64,000 nucleotides of DNA, from NCBI GenBank assembly GCA_964187785.1, contig OZ076409.1, positions 28,460,001-28,524,000 on the forward strand, written 5' to 3'. The position numbers were made by a program, and so were the translations under genes. The notes beneath the pieces are model-generated. The model did no database searches, was not told the origin of the DNA, and saw nothing but the letters and a program-made list of their open reading frames with translations. This stretch comes from Amphiscolops sp. MND2022. Its lineage: Eukaryota. Within the stretch, counting starts at the first letter, position 1. Each line of letters begins with the position of its first letter. Of this stretch, positions 22,860 to 64,000 are shown in pieces.

Positions 22860-22945
22860 TCCCATCATTCTATCCGTTGGCTCACTCAAAACTAGTCACT
22901 CCAGTTAAATGAAATATAACCAATAACAAGTTATCGCAAAGATAA

Positions 22946-28852: not shown

Positions 28853-29305
28853 ATGGCCCCCAACGCTGAAGTAGAAGATATAAGAACTATGACTTCAGGT
28901 CACTCAAAAGTTCATAGCCTCAAAGCAGCTATTTTTCACACAATGGCTCACAAACTTTCACTGGAAATCAACAACAATAAAATAACGCCAAAATCTCTTA
29001 TAGCCTTTCTGAAAATCTTATATAATGTCGCCCAAATCAAAAAGAAACGCATCACATTTGAACAATATTCAAGGATTCATGTTGCCGGACCAAAAATTGC
29101 CATTTGTGAAACGGCTTCTAATGTCGTTTTTGTGTTAAACTCGGCATTCACTTCCAAAGACCAGTATTTTCAAGCTGCCCTACAAGAAGCCACAAACGCA
29201 TTCAATGAAATGCTCCACAGTTTTGCGTATACACAGAAATTAGAACACTATGACCCTCATCAACATCAGGCCCATCCACCTCAACAACATCCTCTATACA
29301 ACTAA
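28853..29305 (+). CDS. Accessory ORF of element A, 150 aa, unknown function
   Basis: Strong Kozak context GCCATGG, 12 nt downstream of a pyrimidine-tract/CAG acceptor-like site ending at 28840. Confidence 0.6.
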   Translation: MAPNAEVEDIRTMTSGHSKVHSLKAAIFHTMAHKLSLEINNNKITPKSLIAFLKILYNVAQIKKKRITFEQYSRIHVAGPKIAICETASNVVFVLNSAFTSKDQYFQAALQEATNAFNEMLHSFAYTQKLEHYDPHQHQAHPPQQHPLYN

Positions 29306-30742: not shown

Positions 30743-31155
30743 TGTGATGCCATGATGCATGTCCTCAAAGATTCCATATATCTGAAATACTCTGAACTTT
30801 TAACCAAAGTAATTAGTAAATGTAATTTAATTTGGAAGCTAATTATTCTAGAAGAAACTTCATCTAATATATCCTGTATCAAGCTTTCCCGATTCATCCT
30901 GTTGCTGTCACATTGTTAATTGATGAAACCTACCCTAGTTAATAGAATATATCTACTCGGAGAAATTGAGAATTCATCCTGACGATCGGTCTTTCCGTTA
31001 GTACTCCAAGAACTGAGATCTCAGAAATATATTGTAATCAGACTTAGCTAGCTACAAGATACAAAATAAGACGACTCTGCTGTTAAAATCTTAGACTTCT
31101 TATGTCGATGATAAAACATCTAAAAGAAACTACCACACAACTTTTTAACAGCTCA
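30743..31155 (+). repeat. 3' LTR of element A
   Basis: Matches the 5' LTR; followed by TSD CAAT. Confidence 0.95.
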
Positions 31156-31898: not shown

Positions 31899-33779
31899 CC
31901 CTGGTCGAAGTTGCCGCGAAGTTTTACATGCACCTTCAAAAAATGCCGGCTAATTTTTTGTAAAACATGGAAAATTCAGGGACCATGCCTGGAAAAATTT
32001 CGTAAAATTAACAGGTAACTTGTAAAATTTTTGTAAAATTACCAGGCAACTTGGAAAATGCTGGCAGCATTTCAAGGTATTTTTAAAAAACTTCCCTGCA
32101 ACCTATAAAACAATTTATAAAAAAATCCATGTAGTTTTACTCAAAAAACTCGACAAAAAACTCTGAAAACGACCTTTCAATTTGAACTCGATTCTCATTC
32201 TGACGAAGTCTAATTTCTTCATTTCTAATGTTCTTGTAAAAAAATCAATAAGAAGAAAACTGAATTAAATTCAATCAAAATATACAAAATTGAGTCACAA
32301 TATACAAAATTATTGGCTCTTTTCTGTCCCAATCTTTTTTCAATTCAGATGATTCACCCAACACGTCATCACGCACATCAGCCACTCCACAAAAACATCA
32401 AGTTGACAGGGTCTGAAACAAAAACATACAATCAATACTCTCTGGATCTCAGGAAAAAAACTCCAGGGCACATTTTATCGGACGAAAAACTGTTCTTGAA
32501 CTTCGAAATGTCCTGAAGGCATTTCATTCAATTAATTCGGGCACAAATAAACAAGGCCAAATGGAAATTTTGGGAAAAAAATCACTACTGAAAAAACCTT
32601 GGAAAAACGGAATGTTTCGTGCGAAACACAAGCAGCAAAAACACCAGCTATGATTGTTCCAAACACGAAGTTTTCGAAAAAGCGGAAAGCAAAAAAAACA
32701 TCAAAAAAAATCTACACCAAATTACGACAAAACTTGAAAGACATACCGAAAACGTCTGTGAACGCATGTCCAAAGATGTTAGAAAGCATCGCTATCGTCT
32801 TCCACGTGCAACACTACAGCTGAAGCTCTCAACTCGGATGATTCACCCAACACGTCATCACACATCAGCCACTCCACAAAAACATCGAGTTGACAGGGTC
32901 TGAAACAGTGATTTTAAACGTTATTCCACAAATGTAGTGATTTTAGACGTTATTTCACTGAAATATGGGTATTTTAGTGGTTATTCCAGTAAAATACAGC
33001 ATTTTGGCCATACTTTAACAAAATAACGTAATTTCAGACCTTATTTTAAAGGTAATCAGATGAGAAATGAAATACAATATCCAAAAATTTTGACAAGATT
33101 GTTCGGATTAGAATTTTTCATTTTCAAAAATTTTGTTGACTTTTTTTGATAAAAATCGACAAATTTTTCAATTCATGTGGCAAACTTCAGCAAACATGAT
33201 TGTAAAAACCCAGAATAAGCCTTTTCAATAGTTTTCAAGGTTTTTTTCATGTATTTCGGCGCTGAAAATGTTTGGAAAAATTTGAATTTCGGACCAATCG
33301 AAACAGTCTTATTTTAATATTCCGTTCTAAAGTAGTCCCTGAAAAAATTGTGTAGAACTTCTATATGAAAATGAGTTTGTTTTTTTTATTCCGAAAAGTG
33401 ATAAATATTGCCTATTTCAACAGTTTCCATGCAAAAAAAATTTTCCACTGAAAAAAGTTCCAGTAATACGAATTTGTTTGCCACACGGGCACTAGTTGAC
33501 TATTTGTTTACGTCATATTGTAGCGTCTGTGCTTACAAAATTCGAGGCCTTGCCCACGAAAACCTACAAATTTTCGCGGGGAATTTGTCTTTAATTTCCT
33601 TGATGTTACTCTGAAAACCTGCTAAATTGTAAATAAATATCGATAAATACCTGAAAAATTAGTGACGCAGCATGAAAATATTGAGCATGAAAACTTCTCT
33701 AAGCAGCTCCCAAAAACCTAATAAATTAGCCTTGCAACCTATAAAAGCATGTAAAACTTTCGTGCACTTTCAACTAGGG
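31899..33779. mobile_element. Non-autonomous CACTA/EnSpm-like element, copy 2
   Basis: Starts CCCTGGTCGA, ends TCAACTAGGG; 2-bp TSD CC; internal ~70-bp direct repeat (~32349 and ~32838) and degenerate ~30-bp tandem repeats at 32908-33050. Confidence 0.75.
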
Positions 33780-33885
33780 CCGTGTTTCCTTGAATTCGTA
33801 TCAAAGTATTCGTTCAACTTTGTTTCTGTTGATGTTGCGAGAAAATCGCACAACTTCTTTTCTGTTTTCGAATGAGCTTCAGTCA

Positions 33886-34638
33886 TGTCGTTAGTGTACC
33901 CTTGTGTAACGACAAGCTCTCACCATTGTCGCCGTAACCATAAGAGTTAGAGGAACACATGATATGGGTATTTGCCCGGGACAGGCGCCCATGACCATGA
34001 GCTCATTTTGCCTCTTTCGGGTAAAAACTGTCCCGTCAGAGGAGGATTCCGCTTCTTGTGAAGTGCTCGCCGGCCTGATCCAGTCTGTAATTGCTATCAG
34101 TAGTGCGCATTACGCTTTTTCTTCGAAACCAACACTTAGACAGCCTTTAAAAAATGCAAGTGGTGGAGAGGGAAAATCAAATTTTTTCGAAGTTACACAG
34201 GAGATCGAAATGAGTAGCTCACGAGCTGTTACAACAAGAAAATACGAAAATTACTACATAATTAGCACTTTTGAGGCAGCAATTAGCCGGGGACACAAGC
34301 ACGGATGCTTGGTCAAGCTAATTGACTCATTTTTGGTAATCACAGCGTCTTGTAACGCTTCGCTGAAGAAAGCACTGGTTAGAACAAAGTTCAGTCCGTT
34401 TTGGCAGAAATTTGAGTCTTTTTCTGACAGTGGCCGTGTTTTTCTGCAATCTTCTCGTTTTTTTGGGGTCTCTCTCGAGTCTCTTGCTCAAATCCTCTTC
34501 AATTCCGTGGACAGGTACTTGAATAAAGACACGCTACCGTCTGGCGGAATATGACTCTTTAGTAGAGGAGATATAGTCCCTTGAACGAAATTTTCATCGA
34601 AATTTTCGAAATCGTGCACTCGATAGGTAATCGCTACA
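33886..34638 (-). repeat. Candidate 3' LTR of element B (no partner in window)
   Basis: TG...CA ends; on the minus strand it is preceded by a PPT-like GGGGAGTGTA; lies downstream of B's ORFs. Confidence 0.35.
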
Positions 34639-35651
34639 TACACTCCCCGGGGTCTAGTCTTGACGTCCCCGTCAAGTGTGGGTTGGCGTCATTGAGTCTG
34701 TACCCAGAGTCATCTGTGTCCCACTGAGGAGGTAGAGTGCACATCAAGTAGCGCTGGACGGTTCATTGGGACATCGTCAAGTTGGCCTCGTGGAAGTGTT
34801 TTTGACCCAGCGTTGCTGCATTTTGATCAAATCAATACAACTTTGTATACAAATCTTATACGGCAAGGTCATTACTTTTTGTAGCCTGTCGTGAGCAATT
34901 CAGGCGTTAAAATTTCTTTTCGGCCATTCAAAAAAAAAATTTTTTATTTGCCGTTAGTGTTAAAACTTGTTTTAAGGTCAACGACCATCACATGACTGTT
35001 TGAAACATATTTTCCGAAGCTCGGGAGCTTCGCACTGCTTGGCGTTTGATAAAAGTTCTTTTGGTAAGCAGTTGCCATAAAATCAATCAATTAGTACGGT
35101 CAATTTAAAATTTCTTTTGCGAGACTTACTCTCGATCCTATCAGGTAGCTCAAGAAAAACAATGGTCGAGGTTCATCAATCTTTTTATTCTATTCATTTC
35201 TCATCTCTCCCTTCTTGTTTCCTTTTCCTTCATCTTTTCTTTTTGTCTTTTTCGACAATGGCAACAGTGTAAACGATAACTAGCAACTAAAAGGGTGTAA
35301 TAGCACCGAAAATTTAGAGCACGGAGTGCGCACAGCGCATCCACATGTAGCATAAAGTAGCATGAAAAAGCACTAACTGCAAACACAAATTGCAAATTGA
35401 ATATTGCATCTAACTAAGGCAAGGCAAGAACGCAGTTTCATGGTTGGGTTGCCGGTCCCAAAACGGAATAACAAGGAGGATGAAGCCCGGGGGCTTCATC
35501 TCCACTTGGAGATTTTTACCCATGACCAATTGGCATTTCCATAATCGAAGTTTAGCAACAACAGAGATTGAAACCATGAGATTTCGCAAAAGTTCATCTA
35601 GCATAAGACTATTGAAGTTGGAAATCGAATGACGACAAAGTTAGGTTTGTT

Positions 35652-38600
35652 TTACTGGGTGGCGGAGGAGTGACGCGCTCTGGGGGAAACGTCTGCCTTT
35701 GGTTGCAGTTCGGACAGAGATCCTCTTCGCGTATTTCCTCCTCGCAGGACTGGCTTTGGTTCGGCGCTGGCAGTTTCATGGGTCCTAGGAGCCGTGTTTG
35801 AGCCACTAGGGCCATTTTCTGCGGCTACAGGAGTTGAGGCTTCTGGCGAATGTTCTTGCGCTGCATTGGCTGAGCCGCTAACATTGACAGAACTTGTGGT
35901 CGACGTGGAGATTGGGATCTGCACATCCAATCTACTAGCATTAAACAAGTGCGGTAGATCCAGCGGTCTATTGCGGGTGGCAATGGGTCGTTTCTGTTTC
36001 GCACTGAGTTTCGGGCGTAGATCAGGTCGGCCCCAGAGCCCGCAGGCTCTGGACCAGTTGTCCCTGTTTGCATGTTCTATGATTTGCCTGGAGGCTTCCC
36101 ATTCGGGTCCGAGGGGATCACTTAGCAATTCCATGACGTGGTAGCAAGTCTCCGCTGGCATGTCGCTTCCCATAGTAACCCTCGCCTCTGGATTCCAAAC
36201 AGGCATTGTCAGTGGGGGGATGATCAAACCTTTTAGGCGTCCTTGGCGCTCCTCCAGGGTCCTTGACATCCACACGCCAAGTTTGTAGTGGTCGCGATAG
36301 GCATACTGCTCATCAAAGCCCTTCTCGACCATACTGATTGGCTTGGCCCGGATATAACCGATGGGTCCTCGCCAGTACCTGGCTGGAAGCTTAATCATTT
36401 GGAAATTGTACTCCTGATTCGTGTGACCGCCCATGGTTTGCACACATTCGGTCACGTACTTCCTGAGGTGTGCGAAACTCCAATTGAATCGCTGTGGGAT
36501 TCCGAGGTGGTCTAGGGGAGAATTATACCAATTCACCGGGCCGTATTCGCGAGGTAAAGGGCACGCCTTCTTTGTTCGGGCTTTGAGAATACCGGCCAGG
36601 TTTTCGTCTTGCTGCGTCTCATTCTTTATTGTGGTATACATGCGTGGTACTAGCAGAAACAGCCCACGTTCAAGCATCTGTTGATAGTTGTGTGGTTTCA
36701 CGTTCTTCAGATAAGTTAGGATGGATACCGTTAACGTCTCCGAGGCCAGTCTCAGAGGCTTGGTGGGATATCGGAGTATCCCGGTTGGGCCAAATATCGG
36801 AGTTAGCACGGGTGCTAACACCGGTATAAGATCTTCGACTTCAGCCAAAGTGAAATCTGCCAGCTGGTTGGGTGTCAAAAATCCAGCTACCTCGGTCACT
36901 AGCTGACGTCCATCATATAATGGTTGGTGCTTATCCACCCCCACGAAAAGTCCCGAGGCAAAGACCAGACTGCAATATATCCAGTGATATAATGAAGTTG
37001 TCATACGCTCCAGGTGAGCGGGATAATCCTGAGCGTCTTTCCGTTGCAACAGCTTGGCTAGGGCGGTGAGGCCTGAGATATTCCCTCGTGCAATCACCAG
37101 ATATGAAAATAGCCATTCCAGATTACACTCGGTAACCAGGTCAGTCAATATCATCATTGGGCCAGCTACAAAGCGTTTCTGCCCGAAAGTGAGCATCAGT
37201 GCAAAGAGTTCGTCCACCTGCACGGTACCGATAATCTCGCTGATTTCGATCAACCAACTCTCCTCTAAATCGAACTCGACTCGAATAACATCGGGACTCC
37301 AACCCAATCCTAAACAGATGGCAAACTGGTCGGTTGACATCCCAAGCTCTTTTGCAATGTCTGCTACGGTGGTAGTTTGTAGCCGCTGGTACCAAGCGTC
37401 GTAGGTGCTGCTGAAGGCTTGGATTTCAGCCTGAGTTTCGCTCGTCAGTTTTGCAGCAATGTACTTCATTCCCACTGATAATTGATCGATTGTGAGGTCT
37501 TTGGCAAATTGAACTCGCGGGATGGCTCGTTCTACTTCTCGGTCGCTGGGGACTTTGCTCATTGTGGCAGTGACTTCTGCTAGATCGGTTTTGATACAAG
37601 TCTTTCCACCGGAGGAGCGCGCGCGCTCTATCCAGTTATTCAGGCGGATTGCCTCGCATTCAGCCGTACTGGGCTCTGGGACTCGCCTTTCTCCGTCCTT
37701 GTTGAATACCAACAAGCCCATGCGAGTGCCGTGATCAAAGTAGATGGCATCGTCGATTGTCAGCTGCGCGTTCCCTGTCTTTTCCACTGACTGTAGCACT
37801 TTAGACACTGAGGCAATATACCCCATGTAGGACAGCCAGGAGGGACGAAAGTCATTGGAGCTAATCCGCATATTGGGCGCGCAGATCGCAAAGTCTATTT
37901 CTCTACACTTGCAAACTTCTGTCACCATGTATACAAATCTCTGCAAGGCGGGGGGCCATTGGCAAAAACCTGGGGGTGTCACGAACAGGGCTGGCACCTT
38001 GAGTTTGTCCTTCAAGATGTTTTGGGCTTTCTCCATGGCTCGGGCCATGTTCAATGCTGCATTGCGTACCGTTGTTCGCTGAGCTGGACTTGGATTCATA
38101 ATCTCAACGTTCGCGATCTGGGCCATTAGTCCTTCACAGGCCATGTGATCGAAAACGTTGCTGATGATCACTCTACGTGGAGGTGGCTCTTTGAAGGTTC
38201 CTGTCATCTCAGGGTCAAACATGGTGACCAACACTTCGGCCATCTCGGGAATACGTGACAGCGGTAGAGTAAAAACCATCACGTCTGACAACACGTTGTC
38301 AATGGGGACATTCTTGAGGAATGTTGAGTCAATAAGTAAGGCGAAGCGCGCACGCTGCAACCTTTCTTTTGGCATTGGTAGCTGGGCTTCGAGATCACGG
38401 GCGTACCGTGGGTTGATCTCAAAGGTCTCTCCAGCGTTGAGGAAATATCGATCGGCGAATTGACCACGAAGGTCAATGTTGAGGGCGTCTAGGTAATTGT
38501 CTTCTACGTTTGGCAGCATATTCATTGCCTTCCCTAGCCATGGCGGCTCATTGGTAGGGGTGTGGTCGGGGCGGATTGGACGATTCATGAATACAGGTAC

Positions 38601-40019
38601 ATTCGCCTTCTTCAACTTCGCATGCTCTTCGTCATTCGGAGGACACATGTTCTTCTCAAATAGCCATTCGGGCGATACTATAACTGCCGATTCCCAGATA
38701 CGTCGGGAGTCCTTGGTGACCAATGTGCCCTTTGTGTTTTGCATGGGACTCAGGTACGTCGGCTGTTTCGTAAAGGTCCTCTTAGTTGGGTGTTGAATCG
38801 CCTGTTTGCGGAGTGGGGTTCCAGTTGGACCACTGTTGGTCACTTTCAACCCTGGGTAATCACCCATTATGTCCTTGACAGTTCGCTGGGATACAGGGGT
38901 GCCTTGATAACCCACAGTTTGCTCCGATTGTGGCTGTCCTGATGTGGAGGGCTTAGGAGTCGCTCGTTGAGCCAGCGACTCGCGTGTTGTAGACTGCGTG
39001 GATGGTGGTTGCGGCAGTCCTTGTTGTTCGCCTGTTACGTCCGGTTGTGATTGGGGTGAGGGAAGCACGCATGCTTCCGACACTTTTGACTTCGTTTGGT
39101 CTGGCGCTTTGGAGGTTGTGGCCTTCTCGTTGGAAATCTTTTTGTCGGGTGGTGGCTTGCTCGAGGGGCTGTCACGGGCAGTCAATGGTTGTTGAGTCTT
39201 TTTTGTTGGAGAAGGGTCGTTGCGCTTTCTGGAGGCAGGGCGGCTCTCTCCTCCCCCCTTTTGAGAAGAGCGGGAAGGCGAACGACTGCGTTCCACAGTC
39301 ACGGTGCGAGAGTGTCCTGGCTGTTCAGACTGAGGATTGATGTGGGGAATAGTGATGACACCTTGACGTGTTTCAGTTGAAGTCGCATTGTCGTTGCGAA
39401 TAGTGACAGTGGGCAGAGCAATTCGACGTAGTTCTGGCCAACACTGCTCCATGGATCGCATGAAATCATCGTAATTGGGATTGGCAGCCACTGCTTGCAG
39501 CGCTGAGATGACTGCTTGCTCCGCCATAGATTGATTGGGCAAGCCAGGCACTATAGGAGCAGGAGTGCGCGCACGCACTACTGCTTGTGGTGTTGGTGCA
39601 GGAGGTGGCGGTGGAGGTGGAGGCGGGCAAGAAGGGATCTGTAAAGGTCTAGTCTGGTGGACTCCGCCATTCGCAGGACTATACGAGATTGCCGCACGAT
39701 CATCTGTGAAGTGATGCGTGAGATCATGGCCGTGCCACACTCCATCTTGGTACGTCATGGATCGTTGGAATCCAGGAAACCCTGAAGTAATTGATATCGT
39801 CAGCATTGGGGCTTGCAATTGTGATTCCATTTGGGCAATGATTGCTGTTACCCCGGCAACTGCAGCTGGCGACAGACCTTGGTCGAGTCTGTCTCGAATA
39901 AAGGCAATTTGTGGGGTGCGTTGGACACGCGCAGTGTCATAGACGCGTTGCCCCAAGGCAGGAGAGTTATCTGTAGACCTTGGCGGGACGTTGTTGCTTC
40001 TATCATTATCTTGGTTCAT
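35652..40019 (-). CDS. ORF2 of element B, 1455 aa: disordered N-terminus, SGNH/GDSL-hydrolase-like domain, unknown helical C-terminal region
   Basis: Intact ORF starting 223 bp downstream of the gag-pol stop. FALLIDSTFL, RVIISNVFDH, ALFVTPPG and NDFRPSWLSY fall in SGNH block I/III/V order and spacing. Confidence 0.8.
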   Translation of the reverse strand: MNQDNDRSNNVPPRSTDNSPALGQRVYDTARVQRTPQIAFIRDRLDQGLSPAAVAGVTAIIAQMESQLQAPMLTISITSGFPGFQRSMTYQDGVWHGHDLTHHFTDDRAAISYSPANGGVHQTRPLQIPSCPPPPPPPPPAPTPQAVVRARTPAPIVPGLPNQSMAEQAVISALQAVAANPNYDDFMRSMEQCWPELRRIALPTVTIRNDNATSTETRQGVITIPHINPQSEQPGHSRTVTVERSRSPSRSSQKGGGESRPASRKRNDPSPTKKTQQPLTARDSPSSKPPPDKKISNEKATTSKAPDQTKSKVSEACVLPSPQSQPDVTGEQQGLPQPPSTQSTTRESLAQRATPKPSTSGQPQSEQTVGYQGTPVSQRTVKDIMGDYPGLKVTNSGPTGTPLRKQAIQHPTKRTFTKQPTYLSPMQNTKGTLVTKDSRRIWESAVIVSPEWLFEKNMCPPNDEEHAKLKKANVPVFMNRPIRPDHTPTNEPPWLGKAMNMLPNVEDNYLDALNIDLRGQFADRYFLNAGETFEINPRYARDLEAQLPMPKERLQRARFALLIDSTFLKNVPIDNVLSDVMVFTLPLSRIPEMAEVLVTMFDPEMTGTFKEPPPRRVIISNVFDHMACEGLMAQIANVEIMNPSPAQRTTVRNAALNMARAMEKAQNILKDKLKVPALFVTPPGFCQWPPALQRFVYMVTEVCKCREIDFAICAPNMRISSNDFRPSWLSYMGYIASVSKVLQSVEKTGNAQLTIDDAIYFDHGTRMGLLVFNKDGERRVPEPSTAECEAIRLNNWIERARSSGGKTCIKTDLAEVTATMSKVPSDREVERAIPRVQFAKDLTIDQLSVGMKYIAAKLTSETQAEIQAFSSTYDAWYQRLQTTTVADIAKELGMSTDQFAICLGLGWSPDVIRVEFDLEESWLIEISEIIGTVQVDELFALMLTFGQKRFVAGPMMILTDLVTECNLEWLFSYLVIARGNISGLTALAKLLQRKDAQDYPAHLERMTTSLYHWIYCSLVFASGLFVGVDKHQPLYDGRQLVTEVAGFLTPNQLADFTLAEVEDLIPVLAPVLTPIFGPTGILRYPTKPLRLASETLTVSILTYLKNVKPHNYQQMLERGLFLLVPRMYTTIKNETQQDENLAGILKARTKKACPLPREYGPVNWYNSPLDHLGIPQRFNWSFAHLRKYVTECVQTMGGHTNQEYNFQMIKLPARYWRGPIGYIRAKPISMVEKGFDEQYAYRDHYKLGVWMSRTLEERQGRLKGLIIPPLTMPVWNPEARVTMGSDMPAETCYHVMELLSDPLGPEWEASRQIIEHANRDNWSRACGLWGRPDLRPKLSAKQKRPIATRNRPLDLPHLFNASRLDVQIPISTSTTSSVNVSGSANAAQEHSPEASTPVAAENGPSGSNTAPRTHETASAEPKPVLRGGNTRRGSLSELQPKADVSPRARHSSATQ

Positions 40020-40242
40020 GCCGACAATTCTGAAAGAGCGTAGGTCGATTGTAGCACACTTGATAGTAGGGCAACACCATAGGTCATTTTAAGGGTAATA
40101 CCAGGGAAAGTAATAGAATGTCACGCATTAACATTAAAGAAAAAGGTAATGTAATAGTCTCAAATAAACTCCGTGTCGACTCACTAAACTTAATCGAGCG
40201 GATAAAAAACAAAAAACAAAAAAAAGCGGAAAAACGAGAGCT

Positions 40243-52102: not shown

Positions 52103-52678
52103 TTATGAGTGACCCGTGTAAGGAGTAAAGTCCGTATGATCCCTCAGATCACAAGCAGACCTTGAGTCCTTCTTTGTAATCTTCTCATTTGTATTTTTCC
52201 ACATGTTCCCAGTTCTGTTCTCATCAAAGGACGTGGGCGGCTCAACGCCATGTTGGTTCAAAGGCAAATTTCCTACCATGTTTTGTATCTCTGGTATTAT
52301 TCTCTCACTAATAGCACAGTTGATTGCTCTACTAATCTGATTTTGCATGAAGTCCATCATGGTCTCCATTTCACGAGACATTCTCGCATTCATTTCACTT
52401 GATAGTGTATTGATCGATTCAACCAATCTTTCCTCCCTAACAGGCTCATTTTGATTATTGATGTCTCTAATTTCATTTTCTTGGGACGAATTTTCTCTGT
52501 TTGGGAAAGGCCCATAGTCACGTCGCCCGTCTGGGACGTTTATGAGACTGTCCAATTCTCTTTCTATAGAATTTGAATTTCCATCCCCTAACATTACGTC
52601 CATGTTGTCGTAATCAGACAACATGTCCAATTCTCTTGACTTTCTGGCCTTGGCCTTTTGTCTTCTTGTGGAAGGCAT
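52103..52678 (-). CDS. LTR-encoded ORF (191 aa, coiled-coil-like), possibly the Gag N-terminus
   Basis: ATG ORF stays open to the LTR end and stops only in flanking DNA. Confidence 0.6.
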   Translation of the reverse strand: MPSTRRQKAKARKSRELDMLSDYDNMDVMLGDGNSNSIERELDSLINVPDGRRDYGPFPNRENSSQENEIRDINNQNEPVREERLVESINTLSSEMNARMSREMETMMDFMQNQISRAINCAISERIIPEIQNMVGNLPLNQHGVEPPTSFDENRTGNMWKNTNEKITKKDSRSACDLRDHTDFTPYTGHS

Positions 52679-53094
52679 AAAATATTTCTACAGGAGGTAA
52701 TATTTGAATTATTCCTGTAATCGAGTAGTAAGAAAGCTTTACAAGACAACTTGTATAAATGCAAAGTTTGTAGGTTAACTGTATCAAGTTTAGCAAAATT
52801 GTGTCTTGCGAGGTCCCGACCTGGGTATATATACCTAAGTGGGCATGATTCGCAATTTTATGGGGGTCATGATACTAAAAATAACTTGCAAGTTATAAAT
52901 AGAACACGTCACCGCTAAAAATAGAATCATTGCGTCACTACAGACAGGTAGAGGCGGGTAGATCAAAGTGCCTTAGTAGGCCGAGTGATACATGGAGTAT
53001 AGCACTTACATGTAACGCAAAATGCATAACAACTTTTACATGTAGGAAGCATTCATGTAAGACACATATGACGGGTAGCTGTAAGGGACTTATA
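52117..53094 (-). repeat. Probable 3' LTR of element C (upper boundary may instead be 53010)
   Basis: Plus strand TGTAAG at 52117; CTTATA at 53089-53094 followed by a PPT-like tract (minus AAAAAGGGAT); an alternative CTTACA ends at 53010. Partner LTR is outside the window. Confidence 0.55.
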
Positions 53095-53752
53095 ATCCCT
53101 TTTTAACATCATAGGGCAACATCACCTTTGAACAGGTGCATGAAGGCCCGGTACGGCCAATGGCCGTCCGGGTTTTCTAATTTAGTCTCATCAATATATA
53201 GGAAAGCAACACTGCATGTTAACACTACATGTGTTTGGTCATTACATAGGATGGGTTATTCGCGTCCTTCAATTGCTAATTAATTGAAACACTAATTTCA
53301 TGTGATAAGTAATATAGCACTTGAGTATTCATCATGTCTACCGGCCGAGTTGGGCCTTCTTTATTATGCAGCACCAAGACAATTAGTACAAAAGATAGGG
53401 ACGGCTATATTATATAGCCGCTTTCGTCCTATTCGCAATCATTAAGTACTATTCAACCACAGCATCAAAGCATAGTAAGGCCGGCAAAGTTAATTGGCCG
53501 TATTGGTCCATTCTAAATAGCTATTAGCACAGTTACGTAATACGTAAAGGAATGGTTGTTATAAACTGCGCTGTGATTGGACACTTAGCCGTTGACGGCC
53601 TAGCTAGCCATACTGGACAGGCAAACATTTGAATACTTTTCCTCTTTGCCTGTCAGTATAACTTGGTGTCAAATGTCTTTTACATGGAAAATATTAATGC
53701 AATACATCAATCAATATACTCGAAATAATACTAAATGTTTGAAAGTTTTGAT

Positions 53753-54589
53753 TTATAATGGGAGTGTTCCAGGCAGAGCAATTGGCCTTGTGTGGTCAAT
53801 TGTATAGACGTTCCCATCGCAGGCGGCAGCCTGCGACACTCCCCCTGGTAGTAATAAGAACGTGCCCACTTGCATTCCCTCGATAAAAGCTCTTTTGCGG
53901 GCTTCCAGTTGATCAGCTGATTCTCCCAATGTGGCCGTCTTACACAAATAATCCGTGACTGCTTCATTCTGAATTTGTACGGTAGATTTCCCACATATCA
54001 CGCAGTCCGAATAATTTGCCATTGGATTGTGTGTTTCAATTCCCATTCCTTGAAAATGGTTTGTAACTGTGTCCAATGACTGCTGGGTGGTATCGCCCTG
54101 ACGGTCCGCTAAATTGGAGTCGTAAATTGGCCCTTTCTCCTCGGGTGGGGGCGACATGGGAGTATCCGCTATGGGAATAATTTCTCTACACAGTTTAATT
54201 GGATGATTATTGCGCACTCGGTCGTCCCGCCGTATTGGACCGTTTCCTTTTCCCAGTGAGAAGAAAGATTGGTCAAGTGTAGGCCTTATTGCGCTGCTCG
54301 TCCCAAAGGTCCCGTATCCCGGTAAGTTATACTGGGGAGCTTCACTTCTAGTTTTCAGTGTATAGGATGAGCCAGGCACTGGGATGGGTGATGACAATTT
54401 CATCTCGACACACTGGGCCATCATCATGATCTCGTCGTCTATTTCTTCGTCTTCCGATGACAGTTGAAGATCCAGCACTGAAGTCATACTCAGGTCACAT
54501 ATTTCCTCCTCCTCGTCGCTGGACAGGCAAATTACATCTATGCCTTCGGGCGCCGCGCCTTGGAAGTCGTTAGGAAATCGCTGGGCCAT
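53753..54589 (-). CDS. Accessory ORF of element C, 278 aa, with SUMO-interacting-motif-like segments
   Basis: Intact ATG ORF; IDVICLSSDEEEE and VLDLQLSSEDEE; CVIC near the C-terminus. Confidence 0.7.
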   Translation of the reverse strand: MAQRFPNDFQGAAPEGIDVICLSSDEEEEICDLSMTSVLDLQLSSEDEEIDDEIMMMAQCVEMKLSSPIPVPGSSYTLKTRSEAPQYNLPGYGTFGTSSAIRPTLDQSFFSLGKGNGPIRRDDRVRNNHPIKLCREIIPIADTPMSPPPEEKGPIYDSNLADRQGDTTQQSLDTVTNHFQGMGIETHNPMANYSDCVICGKSTVQIQNEAVTDYLCKTATLGESADQLEARKRAFIEGMQVGTFLLLPGGVSQAAACDGNVYTIDHTRPIALPGTLPL

Positions 54590-55773
54590 GAATCTATCTT
54601 TTATTATCTTTTTTGCAATTTTGAATGCGGCAGAATAAATTTGATTTAATCAGAGTAGGGTAACTGTTCCGTTTGAAAGCTAAGAGACAAATGGCGATTT
54701 TTATATCCCAATTTCTCGATAGTTTCTGCCTCAGACTTTCCCGGTCTTCCATTTCCCGCATAAAACTTCACTGATGAAACTTTCCGAAATATTCTTTGAT
54801 ATCGGCCGTCACCCGCTTTGTTGACCGTCGATTAACTTCAGTTTGCCTAAGTCGGTAAAGAATCTTCAATGACTTCTTCTAGTGTTTACCTCCTCTTGAT
54901 CGCCACTTGAAAACTTCAAGGAGTTGTAACTTCAGCTGAAGGCCCCGCTCGTCGATGCATCCCAGGCGACCAATAGGATCTCAGTTTCGAGCATCCTATT
55001 CAAGATGACGTAACTTTTAATAATTCTCCATATAAGGAAATAATAAAATAACCTGAATAATAAAATAACTGAAATAATAAAATAATGGAAATGCATGTTT
55101 CGAAATATAAATAGTGTGGATTTCTCTGGCAGGTTCCATCCACAAAATAATTCTCATAATTGTAAAAATATTTGACATCAAATCCAGTTTGCCACGAACT
55201 CCAATCTCTTCAGCACTCATTTCCTGATTCTTCAGTTTCCAATTTGTTACATTAATCACTTCTATATTTATCCATTGTTTACACAATATCATAGTCAGTC
55301 TTTTAGTTTCCTTTCTTTTATTTTCAATTCTCAAGAGGCCCTTTTGTGCTTATTTTACCACTTCCTTGTCGGTTTACTGCCTGCCTTCCGGGTCGACAGC
55401 AATCTCTGCTTTGGAGACGGATTCTGAGCTTGGTAGCCACATTTCCACAGCTTCCTTGGTTCAGCCCCAATTGGACACTCTGCCATCTAGCACAGGATTC
55501 TCCTAGAAAATCAGAGACACTCAGTTCAGTCAGAACGTTCCTCCATTTCCTCTCAATCTTCAATTGGACACGTGATACAGGTGAGCTATCTGGTCTTTTG
55601 ATTTTGAACGGAAATGAGCTTGATCAGGGCTCTCTTCGTTCATGTACTTCCTGTCCTTTCACTAAACGATTTCAATATCGCTTTCATTCTCACTTCCGGA
55701 AGATTTTACTGCGGCTTTCATGGACACATTTTCAGGAAGTTGTCCGCAAAAATTTATTTCCTTCTGTTTAGGC

Positions 55774-58700
55774 ATGTCGTCTAAAAAGGATTTGCCAGAA
55801 TCCACTACTACCCCAAACAATAATTCCAACGAAGATAGTGTTAGACCAAACGAGACCACAGGCGCCCCTGATCCTCCACGACCAGCTTCGCAATCTTCTA
55901 ATTGTAGTCGGTCCACAGATGAGAGCGTGACAGCTTTCATCGAAAGAATGGTCACAACAATGGATCCTCCTGAACCAGAGACCACTACCGACCTTCCTAT
56001 CAAACATGGTACAGAGGCCCAAGCAACCATTACAACCTTCCCTTTCCAAAAAGCGTCGGTGTCAGAAGCTATCAGTGTTACCCTTGGTCGGCCAATTGGG
56101 CTGACAGGGCAAGTTGACAGGGAAGAGACCGCTTCTCAAGAAGAGGCTACGCCGTTATATGGGGACACGACCGACGTCGAGGAGTTGCTAGACAGCTCGG
56201 GGGTGGCTGCTTTTCCCCCCATTCCTCGTAGCGTTACTTTGGACTCAGGGGATTTCCCGGACCTTGAAACAGGATACCAACTTGAAGCTGGCCATAGTGA
56301 CGAAGAACAGGAAGCTTATCGTGCCAAACTAGAGTCCAGCGATAGACAGCTGTCAGCCAAGGGCAGGACCATCATTCGGAAGTACTTTGCCTCTGCGACG
56401 CCAATCCGATTACCAGTAGGCCACCCTACTGTCGCTTTCAATCAGGAGCAAATGCATGCCATACTGAGGACAGTTGCTGATGAGAGTGCACTTTCCTCAT
56501 ATCACATGATGAAGTCTCTCCTAATTCACGCTACCACTGGGGCCTCTCAAGATAAACGGAAGAAGCAGCTCAGGCGATGTCCCACGCCAGCCCGACATTT
56601 TGCTGAAAGCTCGGGTGATGAAGGAGTACAAGGAGGGAGCACGAGTGATGGTTACACAAGTGGAGCCATAAACACTGACGAGGACCCATACTTGCTTGGG
56701 TCAATCTCTGGAACAGATGTGGTCAGTGAGACGGACCCACTAGCCCTTACTCCGACAATCAGTTCGGGTGCGCGACCCAGCACGTCTCGAGGAGAAAAGG
56801 TTGCCCCCACATCAGGCAGTGAGTACAGTAGCGCAGACTATCAGCCCTTGTCCATACTAGGTCGCACCAGAAAAGCGGAAGCAACGCACCCAAGTCCCCC
56901 ACGTAAAAGAAGGAAGTTGTTGAGCAAGCCTGGGAAGGTCATGAAGGATGCGTATTTCAAGGGCATCCAATGGACTCGTACCTTTGTGAGTGGACCGGTG
57001 GACCCAATTCACAACAAGTTCAAATTCTACTGCATGCTATGTAAGACTAACGTGTCCATCTACTCTAAGGGGGCGAGGGAGATCCTCCGACATTACAAGA
57101 AAGAAGGGCACCTACGAAAGGACCAGAAATGGCGTTACGTCCACCTGCAAGAAGTCGACAGCATCACTGGAATTGCAACGCACCAGGTGAGAGGAAAGGA
57201 CGGCTACGTCCTTACGCCCCTCGAGCTAGAGAGGGAGAAACCACACTTCATAGATGTTCCCCTCATCGACGCTGGAGACCGCTATCCCTTCTATGATGAC
57301 TACATGGCTAGTATAGGAGGAATTACCAACCCAAGTGACTTGCGGACAAGCACGCTGATTTCCCTGATTGGAACGTTTGTGCCCCAGGATGGAAATCTCT
57401 CGCTGCTGCAGAACCTGTGGACAAAAGTTGGTGTATTCACCAATCACCAGGCCCTGTTCTCCTCATTTGACTGGGGTTCTGCTACGCTCACCGTAAGTAG
57501 TTTTATAGTCCAGGATTACCTTCTGGCCTACTAGGTCAAGTGTTCCTACCTTCTTCATTTTCCCGGTTTCATTTTAGAACATTTTCCATCACATCTTCAT
57601 GCGGGGACTAGCCGACATTTCCAGCCATGTGATCTCTTCGGGCATGTACTCCATTGAATTCACGACGGAAGGCATTTATCGCTGCATGTCAATTCGCTTT
57701 TGGAGGGATGATTCACTTGTCCGTGTGGGACTTCATAGACATTTGCAGACTGACGATTACCCTGATTGTTACCTGTCTGCCATTTCTTGCTTGTTATCCT
57801 GCGTCTCATCCAAGCCCAACTTGGTCAGCATTTCCGGTTGCTCTTCCATGGTGTTCCAGGCTCTCGAGTCTTCTAGCTTGTATGAACATGGGATCCAGTA
57901 CCCATTTCGGTTTGAAGCCTTCTCCATGCCCGACTTCATGCACCCTAACGCCCTTCAGACCAGTCATGTCTTTGGACGGATCGATATGTTTTCCCAGTTG
58001 AAGTATCTGGTCGTCTTCCTCCGAGGCAGTCCTAGCCAACCTTGGGCCCTGCAATGTCCTGAATTGTGCAAGGTGAGTCCCATTTGGATTTCTATAATGA
58101 CGGGTCTTTAAAAGTATTTCCGGATTTTCTTACTCACATCCTAGTCCTTAAGTCCATTGTTCTCTTATGTGCAGTATGATAAAGGTACTTTCCTATTGCA
58201 GGCCTCAGTCGCTTGTGACATCAATTTAAAGAAGGTCCCTGCAATTTGTGAGGAACTAATAAAGAACTGGGCGAGCATTCATGACTACTTGACCAAGCTG
58301 GCTCCAACTCAAGTGATGCAGGGAGTCAGAAATAAGGTATTAATATCCTGTTCGACCCTTTGGTTTCTGCCACAAACTTCCGTAAGTAGTGGTTTTTGTT
58401 ACCTCAGTACTGATATAACTTCTTCCTTTCAGCCACAGAGTTTGGAGTGGGTCATTATCCAGGACGACCTGTTTCCTGCGAAATTGGAGCTTCTGTCTCT
58501 TTTGGTCCGAGATTGTTAGTTCTTTCACTTTGTTTCCAGCTGACCTTGGTTGTCCCCTTCCCTGCAGTGTTGATCTTTGAATGCAGCTAATATTAGAGCT
58601 TTTAGAAAGTAGGAGACTTCGCCATGTTGTAGGTCCTGTTCTCATTTTGACTTCATTTGTTTAGACACTAGGTGTTTTGAGCGGAGCCTGGCTAAACGAC

Positions 58701-59821
58701 GAGACTCAGCGTTCTTTGTTTACGGACAATATTGCCGTTTTGTCAGGAGGTTATGCCACCGAGCCATTCTACCCAAGTGCATCCCGGGGGACGTTGAGTG
58801 GACCAAATTGCTCCAGCTATGTCCTGATGATTTGAGGCAGTTGTCTTGTCGCGATTTCCTGAGTCGGCTCAAGCTGGATGTCGATCTCGATGCTGCTTGT
58901 CTAGCTAAGTTGAAACGTTTTCCCGCTGACAAGTCTTCCACTCTTAGTCTGGAAGAGTTAGCTGCCAAAGAGAAGGAAAGGTTCGGGATGGAGGCCCGCG
59001 CGTATAATGTCTCTTTGCTGGTGACTTTGCTGGAAGACATCCATTTTACTGCCGATATAGTGCATGGAATGGGTTGTTTCGACCCACATGTGTTACTCTC
59101 TCTGCCTTTAGAGCAAGCTACTTTTTGCTTCAACGCACTCTTCAATAGTTTTCACCTCCGTGGTTGGGTGGGCATGTCTGTCAAGCCTGATTACCAGGAA
59201 GAATACTTTGAGTTTATTGACCTTTTCCGAAGCACCTGTGGGACGGTCAAAAATGCCCCTCACACAATTGGAGATATGCTGGACTTCCTCATCGCTATGC
59301 CTTCGTTCCGGAGCCGTTCGAGGCTCTTCCATCTCTTCCGATTGTGTTGTCTTTGCATCACTGAGTCCCATCAAGAACTCCCTGCCATCAAGTTCCATGG
59401 CGTCGATACCTCCAGCTCCAATTGTCGACTTGCTGCAGTGATTCTGCCGGCTCAGTCGTATTTGACAAATTGTCCTGATGCTATTTCTACATGTACGACA
59501 GAAACCGCTTTGGCCCAATATCGTGAGTTAGAAGGGCAATTCAGTTCCAGACATTTCGCTGGAGATCCTTGGGTTCACGCTGACATGTTTGGCCGTGCTG
59601 AATTCTTGAAGAAGCTTAGCAGTTCTTTTAAGCAGTTGAAAAGTACTCCTATTGTCGGCATTAGTACTGCGTCACGCTCGTCCTCTGTATCGACTACTGC
59701 TGTACGGAAAATTAATTGGGCTGCAGGCCAAGCACAGAAACTTGCCTATTTCGGAGATCTCCCTGCTGAAGAACTTTCAAAGACAGTGCAAGAATTGCGA
59801 GAGGGCTCATCTAAAGACTAA
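55774..59821 (+). CDS. Spliced ~1195-aa zinc-finger protein, probably hAT-transposase-derived. Exons 55774-57492, 57578-58072, 58202-58336 (or -58381), 58433-58514, 58665-59821
   Basis: Four GT-AG introns with matching phases (0,0,0,1) join four ORF-track fragments into one frame; NLS PPRKRRK; CMLC...H...H finger at 57031-57111; AATAAA near 59990; likely 5' UTR intron 55581-55771. Confidence 0.8.
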
Positions 59822-60020
59822 ATGTACATAATGTACATTTGCCATACTAGTCTTTCGATTTGTAAATTTCAGTTGGTTTTCGTTTTCTTTGTTTTACATG
59901 TCTTCTGTTTGTATATTTATATAGTTAGTCTTGTCAGTAACATAAAGTCAGAGTGGTCCCAGTAAAAAACATGCCTTCTTAGGCAGTAAAATAAATAGGG
60001 ACATAATTTAACATTTCTGA

Positions 60021-63000
60021 CTAGTATCTGTATTCGTCAGTATAGTTGGGGGTGGGGTTAGGACGAAGGTTATATTTCCCTCCTCTAGGGCTAGAGGTTT
60101 CATTTACATTTTCATCTAATTCATCTTTCGATATTCCGGGCACGGTAATATCCTCCCCCGTTTTTGGAGAATTTTGTAGATCAGTTATTTCGTTCGTGAC
60201 GTCATCATTTTCTGAATGATTAGGCGTATCATTGAGATTTTGTCTATCTCGGCTTGCGGCCGTGCTCGGCCTTTCGGTTTCATCTTGCTGTTCATCTCTC
60301 ACTGGAGAGTCGGTGACGTCAGTTTGTTCTCGCGTAATTGTTACTTCGCGGCTAGTGGCCGGTTGCGTCCTTTGCGCGTCGTCATCAGCGTTGTCATTAA
60401 TGACGTCATCAGTGTTGGTAGTATTCTGATTGTCGTCCCGTCTCGTCTCAAAGACTTGGTAATCAAAATCAGCTTCCCATGAAATAGTATATAAGTCGTC
60501 TTGTGGTATAACTATTTCGTCATCCGGCTGTAATTTCTCTTTAGAGTATTTGTCCTCTAAGGGCGTGTTTGGGACGAACTTTTTCAATCTGATGCGATGT
60601 AAAATTTGTGTTTTGTTTGTGTTTAAGCGACGGACTATATAGTTGTCATTAGGTAATACTTTTTCAATCACATAAGGACCAATCCATCTATAGTCCCTGA
60701 ACGGTATTTTTGATCCTTGGTTATCTGCCTTTGGTTGCAGTATAAAACAAAAATCTTTTTCGCTCAAAGGGGCTGCTTTGGCTTTGCGGTCATAATATTC
60801 CTTGTATTTCAAGTATGACTGCATTATGTTTTTCTTCGTCTGGTCGATAAGGACTTTTGTTCTTTGTTGTAATTCTTCCGCAAATTCTGTAGTTGGTGCA
60901 AACTCTCGATTGGGATTATTTCCAAGTTTGTGATCTAGGACATTATAGGGAATGCGGCCGTGGAAGACTTTACTTGGTTCACAACCTATACTTGAATGAT
61001 AGGTTGTGTTGTAGTTAAGTACTGCTAACGGCAGATATTTGTGCCATTGACGGCGGTATTCCCCGGAGGCCATCTTTAGATTTGTTTTCAATGAGGCGTG
61101 AGTCCTTTCGAGTTTGCCAATTGTTTGCGGGTGCTTCGTAGTGGCACATTTAAGTGTTATGCCCAAAATGCGTGTTATTTCTGCTACTATAATTGAAGTA
61201 AATGCTGAACCTTTGTCAGTGATGAGTGTTGTTGGCAAATATGTATGTTTTGTCATTATATCAATTATCACTTTTGCCGTGTTGGCCGCTGTGGCTTCAG
61301 TTAGCGGGTAAGCGAACAAATATCGTGAAAAAACATCTATTGCTGTCATCACTGTCTGGTAGCCTCCGCTAATCGGTAAATTTGGCAACAGGTCTATCTG
61401 CATGGCATCTTCCGGCCCAAGGTCCCATTCGGGCAGGTTGAGTAACTCAGGTGTTATTGAGTCATTTGGTACCCGTTTGTCTTTCGCACAAATTTCACAT
61501 CCTTCTACCCATCTTTTAACATGTTTTGCAATTCCGGGGTAGTAGTATTTTTGGCGAATCTCCTGTAGCATTTTGGATATGCCTGGGTGTTTATGGGCAG
61601 TGCCATGTAATGCTCGTAGTAGTTCAGTCAATAAGTGTTTCGGTAAGAGAATTTGATGATATTTGACTTGGCCAGTTTCATCATAGTATAGCCTTGTGAT
61701 TATTTCTTCTTTGAGGACAAGTCGGTCCCAATTGTTAAGGTAATGTTTATATCTATAGTCTTGCAGTAATATTTCTTCTGAAAATTCTTCATTTTGCATT
61801 TTGGCTTTGAGTTGCGACAAAGTTGGATCCATGGACTGTTCTAGTAGGATTTGATTCGTCCTACGCAGTCTCTGGCTAAAGTTAGTTATTTTGTCAACCG
61901 AGTTTTCGGATATTGCATCTATGTGTATGACTGCGTCCGTATTTTGATGGGTGTTACGGCGTTGGTTTTTGCGTTCCCAAATTTGTGCTTCCGTTTCGTC
62001 GTCATCTTCAGTAAAGAAAACTTGTTCTTCCTCTGATACCCCTGCTGACTGGACATTGACCTCAATGGGCCTTGTTTCAACGTCCTCGCGGATTGTTAAG
62101 ACTAATTTCTCCTTGGGATCCATCTCCATGCGGGACAAGTAGTCCGCTGCGGTATTATTTTTCCCGGGAATGTGCGCGATAACAAAATTAAATTGTATGA
62201 CATAATCACACGCATTCCACAATGCCGGGGGTATTATCTTCGTTTGGAAGAATCTAGTTACCGATTTGTTGTCCGTAAGGATCGTGATCGGCTTGGGTGT
62301 TCCCCAGAATATATGCCCGAACTCTTTGAATGCGTAAAATATCGCTAAGAATTCTTTGGCGTATATAGACATTTTCAATTGAGAAGGAGTAAATGTTTTG
62401 GATCCATAGGCTATTGGTGCGTATGATTTCCTGACAGATGTGAATTTTTGGTTTGGGTCGTCTTCTGTGAGTATTGCATATCCTGCTGCCAAGAAGCTAG
62501 CATCGGTCATGAGGACCAGCTGGGTGTTGGGCAATGGTTGTTTTAATGCTAGTTGGCTGCATCTGTCAAGGTCCTTGTTGATTTCATTGAATTGTTGTAC
62601 TAGTTCGTTTGTCACTAGAACCTTCTCGTCCTTTTTGAGGAGTTGGAAAAATGGCGCTAATTTCTCCGATAATCGTGGGATGTAGTTCCTGTAATAATTC
62701 AGGAAACCCAGATATCGTTGCAGGGCCTTTTTGGATTTTGGGAATTTTGTTTTCTCCAGAAAGGTAGTTATTCGTTCTTTCTGTGGTTTCACTCCTTCAG
62801 GGGTAATTGTCCTTCCGAGGAAATCTATTTCCGTTGCCCCAAAATGGCATTTGTGCATTGTTAGCTTTAGTCCAGCTTTGCGTATGCACTCGAATGTTGC
62901 TCTGAGGTTTTTGAGTAGATGGTCAGCGTCGTTGGCGGCTATGCCTATGTCGTCCACATATTGCGCGCATTGGTCTGCTTTAATAACTTTGTCCAGGTAT

Positions 63001-64000
63001 TCGCGCATAAAGCTTGAAAAGGCCGATAGGGATCGACTGAGACCTTGGGCAAGTCTTCGATAGGCAAACGTTCTACTGGCAAAATTAAATGCCAGCATTT
63101 CGATTGATCTTTGGTCCGCCATTGGAAGACAGTGGTAGGCTTGGGAACAATCGAGTTTGCAGAAGAGTTTCTTGCCTGCCATGTGTTGCGCCGCGTCCGT
63201 GAGAGTGCTCACAGGATGGTTGTTGTTGATGTAGTCGTCTGAGATGAGGTTATTGATTTTCCTCAAATCGACTAGTAGGCGTAGTTTCCCATTAGGTTTT
63301 TTCTGTGCGAATATGGGACTGGCGTATTTCGAAAATGGCAGTGTAGTTATTATGCCATATTTGTGTAAGAGGGCCAATTCGACAAGTATGTCCTCTTTTA
63401 AATTGACTGGAGTTGGAAGACTTTGGCTGTAAGCGGGCGAATCGTCCTTAGGGGTCAATTTGACCGTGAATTCTTCATTCATTCCGATGTCAAATCTATG
63501 TCGTGCAAAGATGTCATGGAATTCTACCAGGAGCGATTCTATTTTCTTGATCTCATGTTGTTGTAGCATGGAGTCTTTCCAATCGAAGTTGTCAAGGAAT
63601 TTTTGTCTAGATATGTCATTTTGCTGTGGGTCAAGTTCCTCGGCTTCTTGTAAGTTACGTAATTCCCGCAATATTCGTGCTTGAATTGGTGTGTGGGAAT
63701 TTTCATCTCCTGGGTTCTCCGGAGTTGGGAACCAGTATTGTTCATATTGGTCGTTGTTTTTATTTGCTTTTAATAGACTGCTGACATAATAAATCGCGTC
63801 TTCTTCGTTTTCGTTCAGCAAGTGCCAAGTGGACACAGGGTCTATTGGTTTGACATGTTTCATTTGCTCCGGGGTTAATACTGAGAAATTTGCTATATGC
63901 AGACCCTTTTTAAGTTTGAATGGTTGATCTGTAAAATTATTGATATGGAAACTTGTAGATCCTTCTGCCAAAGTGACAATTGCGGCACAAAATGTGATGT
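60021..64000 (-). CDS. pol: Pol (RT, RNase H, integrase) of element C, 5'-truncated by the window
   Basis: RT LVDLRKIN and QYVDD; RNase H MTDAS; integrase HHCC, QIDLL/TDKGS/KLERTH and GPY; uninterrupted frame. Confidence 0.97.
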   Translation of the reverse strand, partial: ITFCAAIVTLAEGSTSFHINNFTDQPFKLKKGLHIANFSVLTPEQMKHVKPIDPVSTWHLLNENEEDAIYYVSSLLKANKNNDQYEQYWFPTPENPGDENSHTPIQARILRELRNLQEAEELDPQQNDISRQKFLDNFDWKDSMLQQHEIKKIESLLVEFHDIFARHRFDIGMNEEFTVKLTPKDDSPAYSQSLPTPVNLKEDILVELALLHKYGIITTLPFSKYASPIFAQKKPNGKLRLLVDLRKINNLISDDYINNNHPVSTLTDAAQHMAGKKLFCKLDCSQAYHCLPMADQRSIEMLAFNFASRTFAYRRLAQGLSRSLSAFSSFMREYLDKVIKADQCAQYVDDIGIAANDADHLLKNLRATFECIRKAGLKLTMHKCHFGATEIDFLGRTITPEGVKPQKERITTFLEKTKFPKSKKALQRYLGFLNYYRNYIPRLSEKLAPFFQLLKKDEKVLVTNELVQQFNEINKDLDRCSQLALKQPLPNTQLVLMTDASFLAAGYAILTEDDPNQKFTSVRKSYAPIAYGSKTFTPSQLKMSIYAKEFLAIFYAFKEFGHIFWGTPKPITILTDNKSVTRFFQTKIIPPALWNACDYVIQFNFVIAHIPGKNNTAADYLSRMEMDPKEKLVLTIREDVETRPIEVNVQSAGVSEEEQVFFTEDDDETEAQIWERKNQRRNTHQNTDAVIHIDAISENSVDKITNFSQRLRRTNQILLEQSMDPTLSQLKAKMQNEEFSEEILLQDYRYKHYLNNWDRLVLKEEIITRLYYDETGQVKYHQILLPKHLLTELLRALHGTAHKHPGISKMLQEIRQKYYYPGIAKHVKRWVEGCEICAKDKRVPNDSITPELLNLPEWDLGPEDAMQIDLLPNLPISGGYQTVMTAIDVFSRYLFAYPLTEATAANTAKVIIDIMTKHTYLPTTLITDKGSAFTSIIVAEITRILGITLKCATTKHPQTIGKLERTHASLKTNLKMASGEYRRQWHKYLPLAVLNYNTTYHSSIGCEPSKVFHGRIPYNVLDHKLGNNPNREFAPTTEFAEELQQRTKVLIDQTKKNIMQSYLKYKEYYDRKAKAAPLSEKDFCFILQPKADNQGSKIPFRDYRWIGPYVIEKVLPNDNYIVRRLNTNKTQILHRIRLKKFVPNTPLEDKYSKEKLQPDDEIVIPQDDLYTISWEADFDYQVFETRRDDNQNTTNTDDVINDNADDDAQRTQPATSREVTITREQTDVTDSPVRDEQQDETERPSTAASRDRQNLNDTPNHSENDDVTNEITDLQNSPKTGEDITVPGISKDELDENVNETSSPRGGKYNLRPNPTPNYTDEYRY

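Follow-up and report, generated by a model that had tools for sequence, protein, structure and literature searches.

Antisense genes between pol and the 3' long terminal repeat (LTR) are conserved in several Ty3/gypsy retrotransposons, among them the plant Retand/Tat elements with their antisense open reading frames (ORFs; TRP28/PF04195), maize Grande with gene23, rice RIRE2 and Botrytis Boty (PMC7264820, PMC11963269). The Grande gene has been shown to have its own promoter and a nuclear protein, and a DNA-binding regulatory role is proposed for the plant antisense ORFs (PMC7264820, PMC11963269). A 2020 review of the plant ORFs found no support for their descent from a nested transposon and recommended looking for spliced transcripts in antisense (PMC7264820). 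In this work we have analysed a gene in the corresponding position in Amphiscolops sp. MND2022 (assembly GCA_964187785.1), contained in a stretch of 64,000 nucleotides which we call the window (contig OZ076409.1, positions 28,460,001 to 28,524,000 of the forward strand). The gene lies between pol and the 3' LTR of a Ty3/gypsy LTR retrotransposon that occupies the minus strand. It differs from the plant ORFs in that TRP28 (PF04195) is absent by Pfam search and a whole hAT transposase scaffold is found in its place, interrupted by four coding introns and a probable intron in the 5' untranslated region (UTR); the nested-transposon origin which is unsupported for the plant genes is traceable here.

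Other systems resemble this locus in part. HBZ of HTLV-1, too, is an accessory gene read in antisense close to the 3' end of its retroelement, with a nuclear protein (PMC11963269), but that protein is unrelated, and the candidate promoter here lies inward of the LTR, facing another accessory gene. The hAT5/hAT6-like transposases and Hermes share with our protein a colinear order of finger, predicted RNase H-like core, insertion domain and C-terminal region, whereas the antisense gene lacks the DDE residues, the CxxH and RW motifs and terminal inverted repeats (TIRs), and moves only by reverse transcription, as cargo. Among host-domesticated hATs, the ZBED family and DAYSLEEPER are likewise transposase-derived, have retained the finger and are under purifying selection; the antisense gene, however, appears to have been domesticated by another mobile element, and it is multicopy and fast-evolving, not a fixed host gene. 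VANC, TnpA, CERV of Cer1 and the bdelloid ORF3s are also lineage-specific accessory genes which outpace the core enzymes, but none of them is known to be a hAT scaffold carried by a retrotransposon. Our literature searches brought up no hAT-derived gene carried by an LTR element; Repbase, Dfam, subscription papers and supplements lay outside these searches, so a prior annotation there is possible.

Results

An initial annotation of the window had joined five coding exons into one frame of 1195 aa, and this model stands. Its exons, motifs and probable transcript signals are:

55581 to 55771, plus strand: probable non-coding 5'-UTR intron ending 2 nt before the ATG, with donor and acceptor conserved in the spacer alignment
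55774 to 57492, plus strand: coding exon 1, 573 aa; low-complexity N-terminal region, patch resembling a nuclear localization signal (NLS), BED-like zinc finger, helical segment
56899 to 56916, plus strand: NLS-like basic motif PRKRRK, predicted function; a basic patch is kept in relatives
57031 to 57111, plus strand: BED-like finger, C-x2-C-x16-H-x5-H; aligns to the donor-group finger and lies within the range aligned to Hermes 24-264
57578 to 58072, plus strand: coding exon 2, 165 aa; RNase H-like core by prediction, without CxxH and without Asp at the first two catalytic positions
58202 to 58336, plus strand: coding exon 3, 45 aa; start of the hAT insertion domain, RW motif absent
58433 to 58514, plus strand: coding exon 4, 27 aa and 1 nt
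58665 to 59821, plus strand: coding exon 5, 384 aa; remainder of the insertion domain, then the hAT C-terminal region, without the catalytic Glu
59990 to 59995, plus strand: AATAAA, which may serve the antisense gene as its poly(A) signal

The frame is antisense to pol and tail-to-tail with it, its stop ending at 59821 and the pol stop beginning at 60021, which agrees with the 200 bp given in the annotation. Many other exon combinations are open as well, so an open frame alone is little proof, and the model was fixed by comparison with relatives. When the window is aligned at the DNA level with 18 relatives, the GT of donors 2-4 and the AG of acceptors 2-3 are invariant, while there is little conservation inside the introns; at acceptor 4, AG is present in 17 of the 18 rows which extend that far. 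A motif-guided search, which demands GT/AG by construction, located all eight splice sites in 18 of 40 loci and each single site in 31-36 of them, many of the loci without the full set being decayed. The lengths of introns 1-4 vary freely across loci (68-98, 71-129, 94-173 and 63-156 nt), and database proteins stop, or turn intron-like, directly past the exon-1 donor. In five distant database proteins (P0193, P0254, P0308, P0310 and P0331) intron 1 is absent and exons 1 and 2 join at the predicted point. The best G000 matches of P0308 and P0193 are 28-44% identical, so the gene family probably reaches into other species. All seven near-identical copies keep GT..AG and stop-free exons. Judged by this conservation the exon structure is real, and from it we infer splicing. 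The donor pattern of the 5'-UTR intron was found in 29/40 closer loci and in none of the 20 distant ones. Two copies seemed to be intron-less, but L061 proved to be a deletion and in L062 the intron is in frame; no processed retrocopy of the gene was seen among 60 loci. It is established that splicing has a polarity and that introns antisense to the genomic RNA are not recognised there. The introns would persist through retrotransposition since, in the genomic RNA, they are invisible to the spliceosome; the locus offers a clear natural case of antisense introns outlasting repeated reverse transcription.

Two parts of the carrier retrotransposon frame the gene in the window:

52117 to 53838, minus strand: 3' LTR of the carrier element, TG...CA, 1722 bp, containing the gag start
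60021 to 64000, minus strand: pol (reverse transcriptase, RNase H, integrase), identified by Pfam, converging on the antisense gene and extending past the window

The Pfam domains of pol are ordered RVT_1, RT_RNaseH, Integrase_H2C2, rve. Six full-length copies elsewhere measure 15,843-15,882 bp (about 15.9 kb), are 99.7-99.9% identical and have TG...CA ends and 5-bp target-site duplications (TSDs); their primer-binding site starts TGG and a purine-rich end, the polypurine tract (PPT), precedes the 3' LTR. For five copies the two LTRs were compared with each other, which showed 0-2 differences over about 1722 sites. Both the LTR pairs and the full copies are near-identical, and the family has therefore been active recently. 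It is also large: an exon-2 search of the 1.07-Gb host genome listed at least 150 matches from 6,538 candidates, and protein identity within the family spans about 27-100%. The copy in the window is 5'-truncated about 1.1 kb past the window. It abuts there a sequence 99.7% identical to window 33605-34639. The junction suggests nesting in a neighbouring element followed by deletion. The gag gene starts inside the LTR (window 52103-52687, minus strand), and its first ~190 codons are repeated in the 3' LTR.

How firmly is the gene tied to its carrier? All 40 loci picked through the gene itself, with 46-92% identity in exon 2, have pol tail-to-tail in the same place, and so do 20 of 20 distant loci with 27-41% identity over exons 1, 2 and 5. 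In the reverse direction, 12 loci were sampled at intervals along the list of integrase matches, and every one carries exon 5. By this linkage the gene is fixed cargo of the retrotransposon family. Compared with locus L021, the closest diverged subfamily, dN/dS (the ratio of nonsynonymous to synonymous substitution rates) is 0.11 for residues 1-350 of exon 1, 0.02 for exon 2, and 0.05 and 0.09 for the N- and C-terminal parts of exon 5. Over 18 loci it ranges from 0.02 to 0.18 where dS is unsaturated, with one outlier of 0.52 on the 27 codons of exon 4. These ratios place the gene under purifying selection, and the view that it is stably carried by the retrotransposon is borne out. Among viral contigs no relative was found. 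The annotation had also placed a homologue in the same position of element D at the left end of the window. The homologue is real, but it is a decayed, frameshifted relic: the exon-5 profile matches it at 1580-1906 (E 1e-23), about 1.8 kb from the relic's pol end, and exon 1 has a weak match at 1-90.

Accessory proteins of transposable elements have been reported to diverge faster than the core enzymes (PMC13547354). Over 38 loci, identity to the window copy is 76-100% for integrase and 29-84% for exon 5. L021 is the extreme case: its pol differs from that of the window by a dS of 0.01, its integrase is 99.7% identical and the neighbouring sense accessory ORF is about 96% identical, whereas dS of the antisense gene is 1.6-2.1. 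These pairwise values suggest exchange of a cassette between subfamilies.

To trace the ancestry of the protein we located relics of a candidate donor group in the genome through a motif search, and 25 long ORFs, then taken from 80 metagenome loci, gave a donor profile with the motifs LFDE, MDGPNVN, CGLH, RW and VERGFS. In HHalign, exons 1-5 map in order and nearly contiguously on profile positions 51-202, 237-372, 410-439, 441-471 and 474-779, with probabilities of 43, 3, 0.2, 19.8 and 96.2 (exon 5, E 2.4e-9); reversed and shuffled controls all stayed below 1. Of 343 family proteins the profile matches 84 at E<0.01, and the same 343 in reversed form give no match. The donor group itself is homologous to Pfam-labelled hATs (97.7%, E 2.3e-12), with the two Asp, CxxH, RW and Glu in register. 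A hAT origin, which the initial annotation had proposed, is thus traceable by profile alignment across the whole protein. The type of hAT is a different matter. Ac-type and DUF4371-type hATs were rejected as the closest source, profile comparison being no better than with reversed controls, so that the closest source is not of the Ac/Hermes or DUF4371 type but the group with 5-6-bp TSDs. A DUF4371 search of the genome gave no match, but neither did its control, and a single donor-group sequence was too weak as a query. Elements of hAT5 and hAT6 are described as having 5- or 6-bp TSDs (PMC12730594, PMC9004415), and by this description the source appears to be a hAT5/hAT6-like group. Both ends were found in 6 of 13 donor-group relic loci of the host, with four 5-bp TSDs, two of which share one flank, and two 6-bp TSDs. 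The host hAT relics (L195-L206, L113, L114) end in CAGGG...CCCTG, have TSDs of either 5 or 6 bp although they form a single family, and have internal deletions in common. No Pfam hAT family was matched on any exon or family member, nor was Pfam zf-BED itself, and sequence searches of the PDB gave nothing significant for the antisense protein.

Comparison with Hermes, which the annotation had recommended, gave high ranks at sub-threshold scores. For P0018, a natural read-through protein of exons 1-2, the predicted model shows a finger, helices and an RNase H-like core, and Hermes ranks second of 48,161 chains: residues 75-389 of the model lie on Hermes 24-264 (Z 6.9, 177 aligned, root-mean-square deviation (rmsd) 16.7). 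Hermes is again second of 48,161 chains for the exon-5 model, with 127-295 on Hermes 425-607 (Z 5.5, 118 aligned, rmsd 8.9). Leads from the ESM Atlas for the N-terminal half were of hAT type at 0.79-0.85, below the lead threshold of 0.9.

The transposase core has, on these alignments, lost its catalytic residues, as had been supposed from the window copy alone. Asp at the first catalytic position occurs in 0/56 family members and in 20/21 of the donor group; the second Asp is present in at most 1/56 versus 25/25, and the third position is Glu in 0/43 versus 21/21, the exon-2 register being taken from a weak alignment. The CxxH and RW motifs (Hermes H268 and W319) are absent from the family, the alignments in exons 2-3 being weak. 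The finger, in contrast, is near-invariant (first Cys 45/45, second Cys 44/45, last His 45/45). Both the BED-like C2H2 finger and the predicted NLS of the annotation hold. In the hAT transposase Kat1, DDE mutations abolish cleavage, hairpin formation depends on CxxH, and it is the BED finger that makes DNA binding specific (PMC4763223). Relative to hAT transposases the protein has an N-terminal extension of about 400 aa. As the annotation had noted, the gene has no flanking ends of its own: no TIR brackets it among the 25 longest of 78 inverted pairs, and neither a CAGGG/CCCTG end pair nor its own TSD was found around it.

Three further features lie on the LTR side of the antisense gene:

53753 to 54589, minus strand: sense accessory ORF, 278 aa, with a motif resembling a SUMO-interacting motif (SIM), VICLSSDEEE, and a conserved C-x2-C; it crosses the PPT into the 3' LTR
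54930 to 55010, no strand assigned: promoter-like conserved block in the spacer alignment, CCAAT and (A/C)A-N-ATGGCG, between the divergent SIM and antisense genes; putative function
55113 to 55200, minus strand: conserved covarying hairpin, possibly a pseudoknot (loop TGGC with GCCA)

The SIM ORF, conserved but without a Pfam match, is head-to-head with the antisense gene. The (A/C)A-N-ATGGCG motif, with one change in the window's copy, is YY1-like. The hairpin is present in 55 of 60 loci, in 47 of them at E<1e-3. Its pairing is Watson-Crick in 118 of 140 cells, and G.U pairs number 12 on the element sense against 2 on the other strand; it likely forms in element-sense RNA and is a candidate packaging or export signal. 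At gathering level it has no Rfam match (two matches were at chance level), and in five of six single-sequence tests it folds no better than shuffles.

Discussion

What could a retrotransposon gain from a dead transposase? We favour, at a little short of an even chance, the reading that the antisense gene encodes a nuclear DNA-binding accessory protein which supports the element's own expression. A hAT5/hAT6-like DNA transposon would have inserted antisense into an ancestral Ty3/gypsy element, lost its ends and its catalysis and become cargo of the retrotransposon. The antisense mRNA would be spliced and its introns ignored in the genomic RNA, as the conserved GT/AG sites and splicing polarity lead us to infer, with transcription starting from the conserved block shared with the divergent SIM gene. 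The protein would be imported into the nucleus, oligomerise on the hAT scaffold and bind element DNA through its BED-like fingers, and so sustain transcription or shield the copies from silencing; the SIM protein, predicted to bind SUMO, may be a co-regulated partner. A bolder form of this idea we consider possible though doubtful. Here the DNA transposase would have been domesticated as an essential sequence-specific regulator which, with the divergent SUMO-binding protein and the structured RNA, makes up an exchangeable anti-silencing cassette that let a gypsy lineage overrun a 1-Gb genome, class II machinery being recruited as a class I accessory system.

Several of our own results count against the favoured reading. 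Exons 2 and 3 are not significant alone in the donor alignment, and the registers of the second Asp, CxxH and RW rest on weak alignments. The structural matches, Z 5.5 and 6.9, fall short of the caution line of Z 8, the models having predicted template modelling (pTM) scores of 0.44 and 0.34, and Foldseek gave no match at E<=0.001 for either model, the best being Hermes at E 0.03. An ESM feature search with exon 5 gave P-element leads at 0.81-0.87, the GTP-binding domains at 0.87, also below 0.9. BED fingers use short-repeat arrays, and no enriched array of this kind was found in the LTR (the top 7-mer count is 5, and counts of at least 5 arise in 29 of 100 shuffles). The pairing of SIM gene and antisense gene changes from lineage to lineage: the two are head-to-head in most loci, and SIM identity to the window copy fails to parallel the identity of the antisense gene. 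Lastly, 56/56 family members have a Glu two residues ahead of the first Asp position.

This Glu, together with a Glu at the first Asp position itself in 17/56 family members, might suggest that the protein is still a nuclease with a rearranged active site, but the second Asp, the third Glu, CxxH and RW are absent throughout, and we judge this very unlikely. A gene that is just a passenger, or belongs to a nested DNA transposon of independent origin, and does nothing for the retrotransposon would fit the transposase ancestry and the nested insertions common in the window; the lack of TIR and TSD, the strong purifying selection and the same position in 60/60 loci down to about 27% protein identity largely refute it and leave it hardly credible.

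Could the protein act on something other than the element's own DNA? As an integration-targeting tether it would bind host DNA motifs, recruit the integrase complex and steer insertions, a role suited to the conserved finger, the NLS-like motif and the obligate linkage to pol. However, the 25-nt flanks of six insertions, a small sample, share no motif by eye, and in L021 a near-identical integrase accompanies an antisense gene whose dS is saturated, which speaks against close co-evolution of the two, so that we find a tether improbable. There is also a small chance that the dead RNase H scaffold and the finger serve as an RNA factor like Rev or CERV, which binds the genomic-RNA hairpin and promotes export or packaging. 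The covarying hairpin, with its wobble bias towards the element sense, travels with the gene, and CERV of Cer1 is a precedent (PMC10309623), but BED fingers are known as DNA binders (PMC4763223), the hairpin performed poorly in the folding tests and nothing ties the protein to it. A further reading is counter-defence at the protein level: the protein would be a decoy or an oligomeric scaffold to which silencing factors of the host bind, for example in a SUMO-dependent manner with the SIM protein, and it would have no specific DNA targets. This would agree with the fast divergence, the long low-confidence N-terminus and the adjacent conserved SIM-like motif; we consider it unlikely, as the near-invariant zinc ligands and finger residues better fit binding of nucleic acid.

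Where the antisense accessory genes of LTR retrotransposons come from, and what they do, is generally unsettled; here a hAT origin can be traced. Transposase domestication, familiar for hosts, would thus be practised by other mobile elements also. Since the family is large, recently active and divergent, the specificity of the finger can be set against element sequence from one subfamily to the next, and the function is directly testable in this way.

Other elements in the window

The remainder of the window holds other repeats. Downstream of the 3292-aa gag-pol of another gypsy element is a sense ORF of 1478 aa (35652-40088, minus strand) with no Pfam match, part of which may follow an SGNH-hydrolase pattern. 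A degenerate gypsy element at 15515-29305 (plus strand) contains an env-like piece at 25093-25851 which matches Pfam Monjiviricetes_fusion (E 7.6e-14), and it has LTR-like repeats at 13354-13768 and 30741-31155. A tandem array of ~178-bp units and a cluster of 33-39-bp palindromic repeats occupy 9309-10415 and 411-1278.

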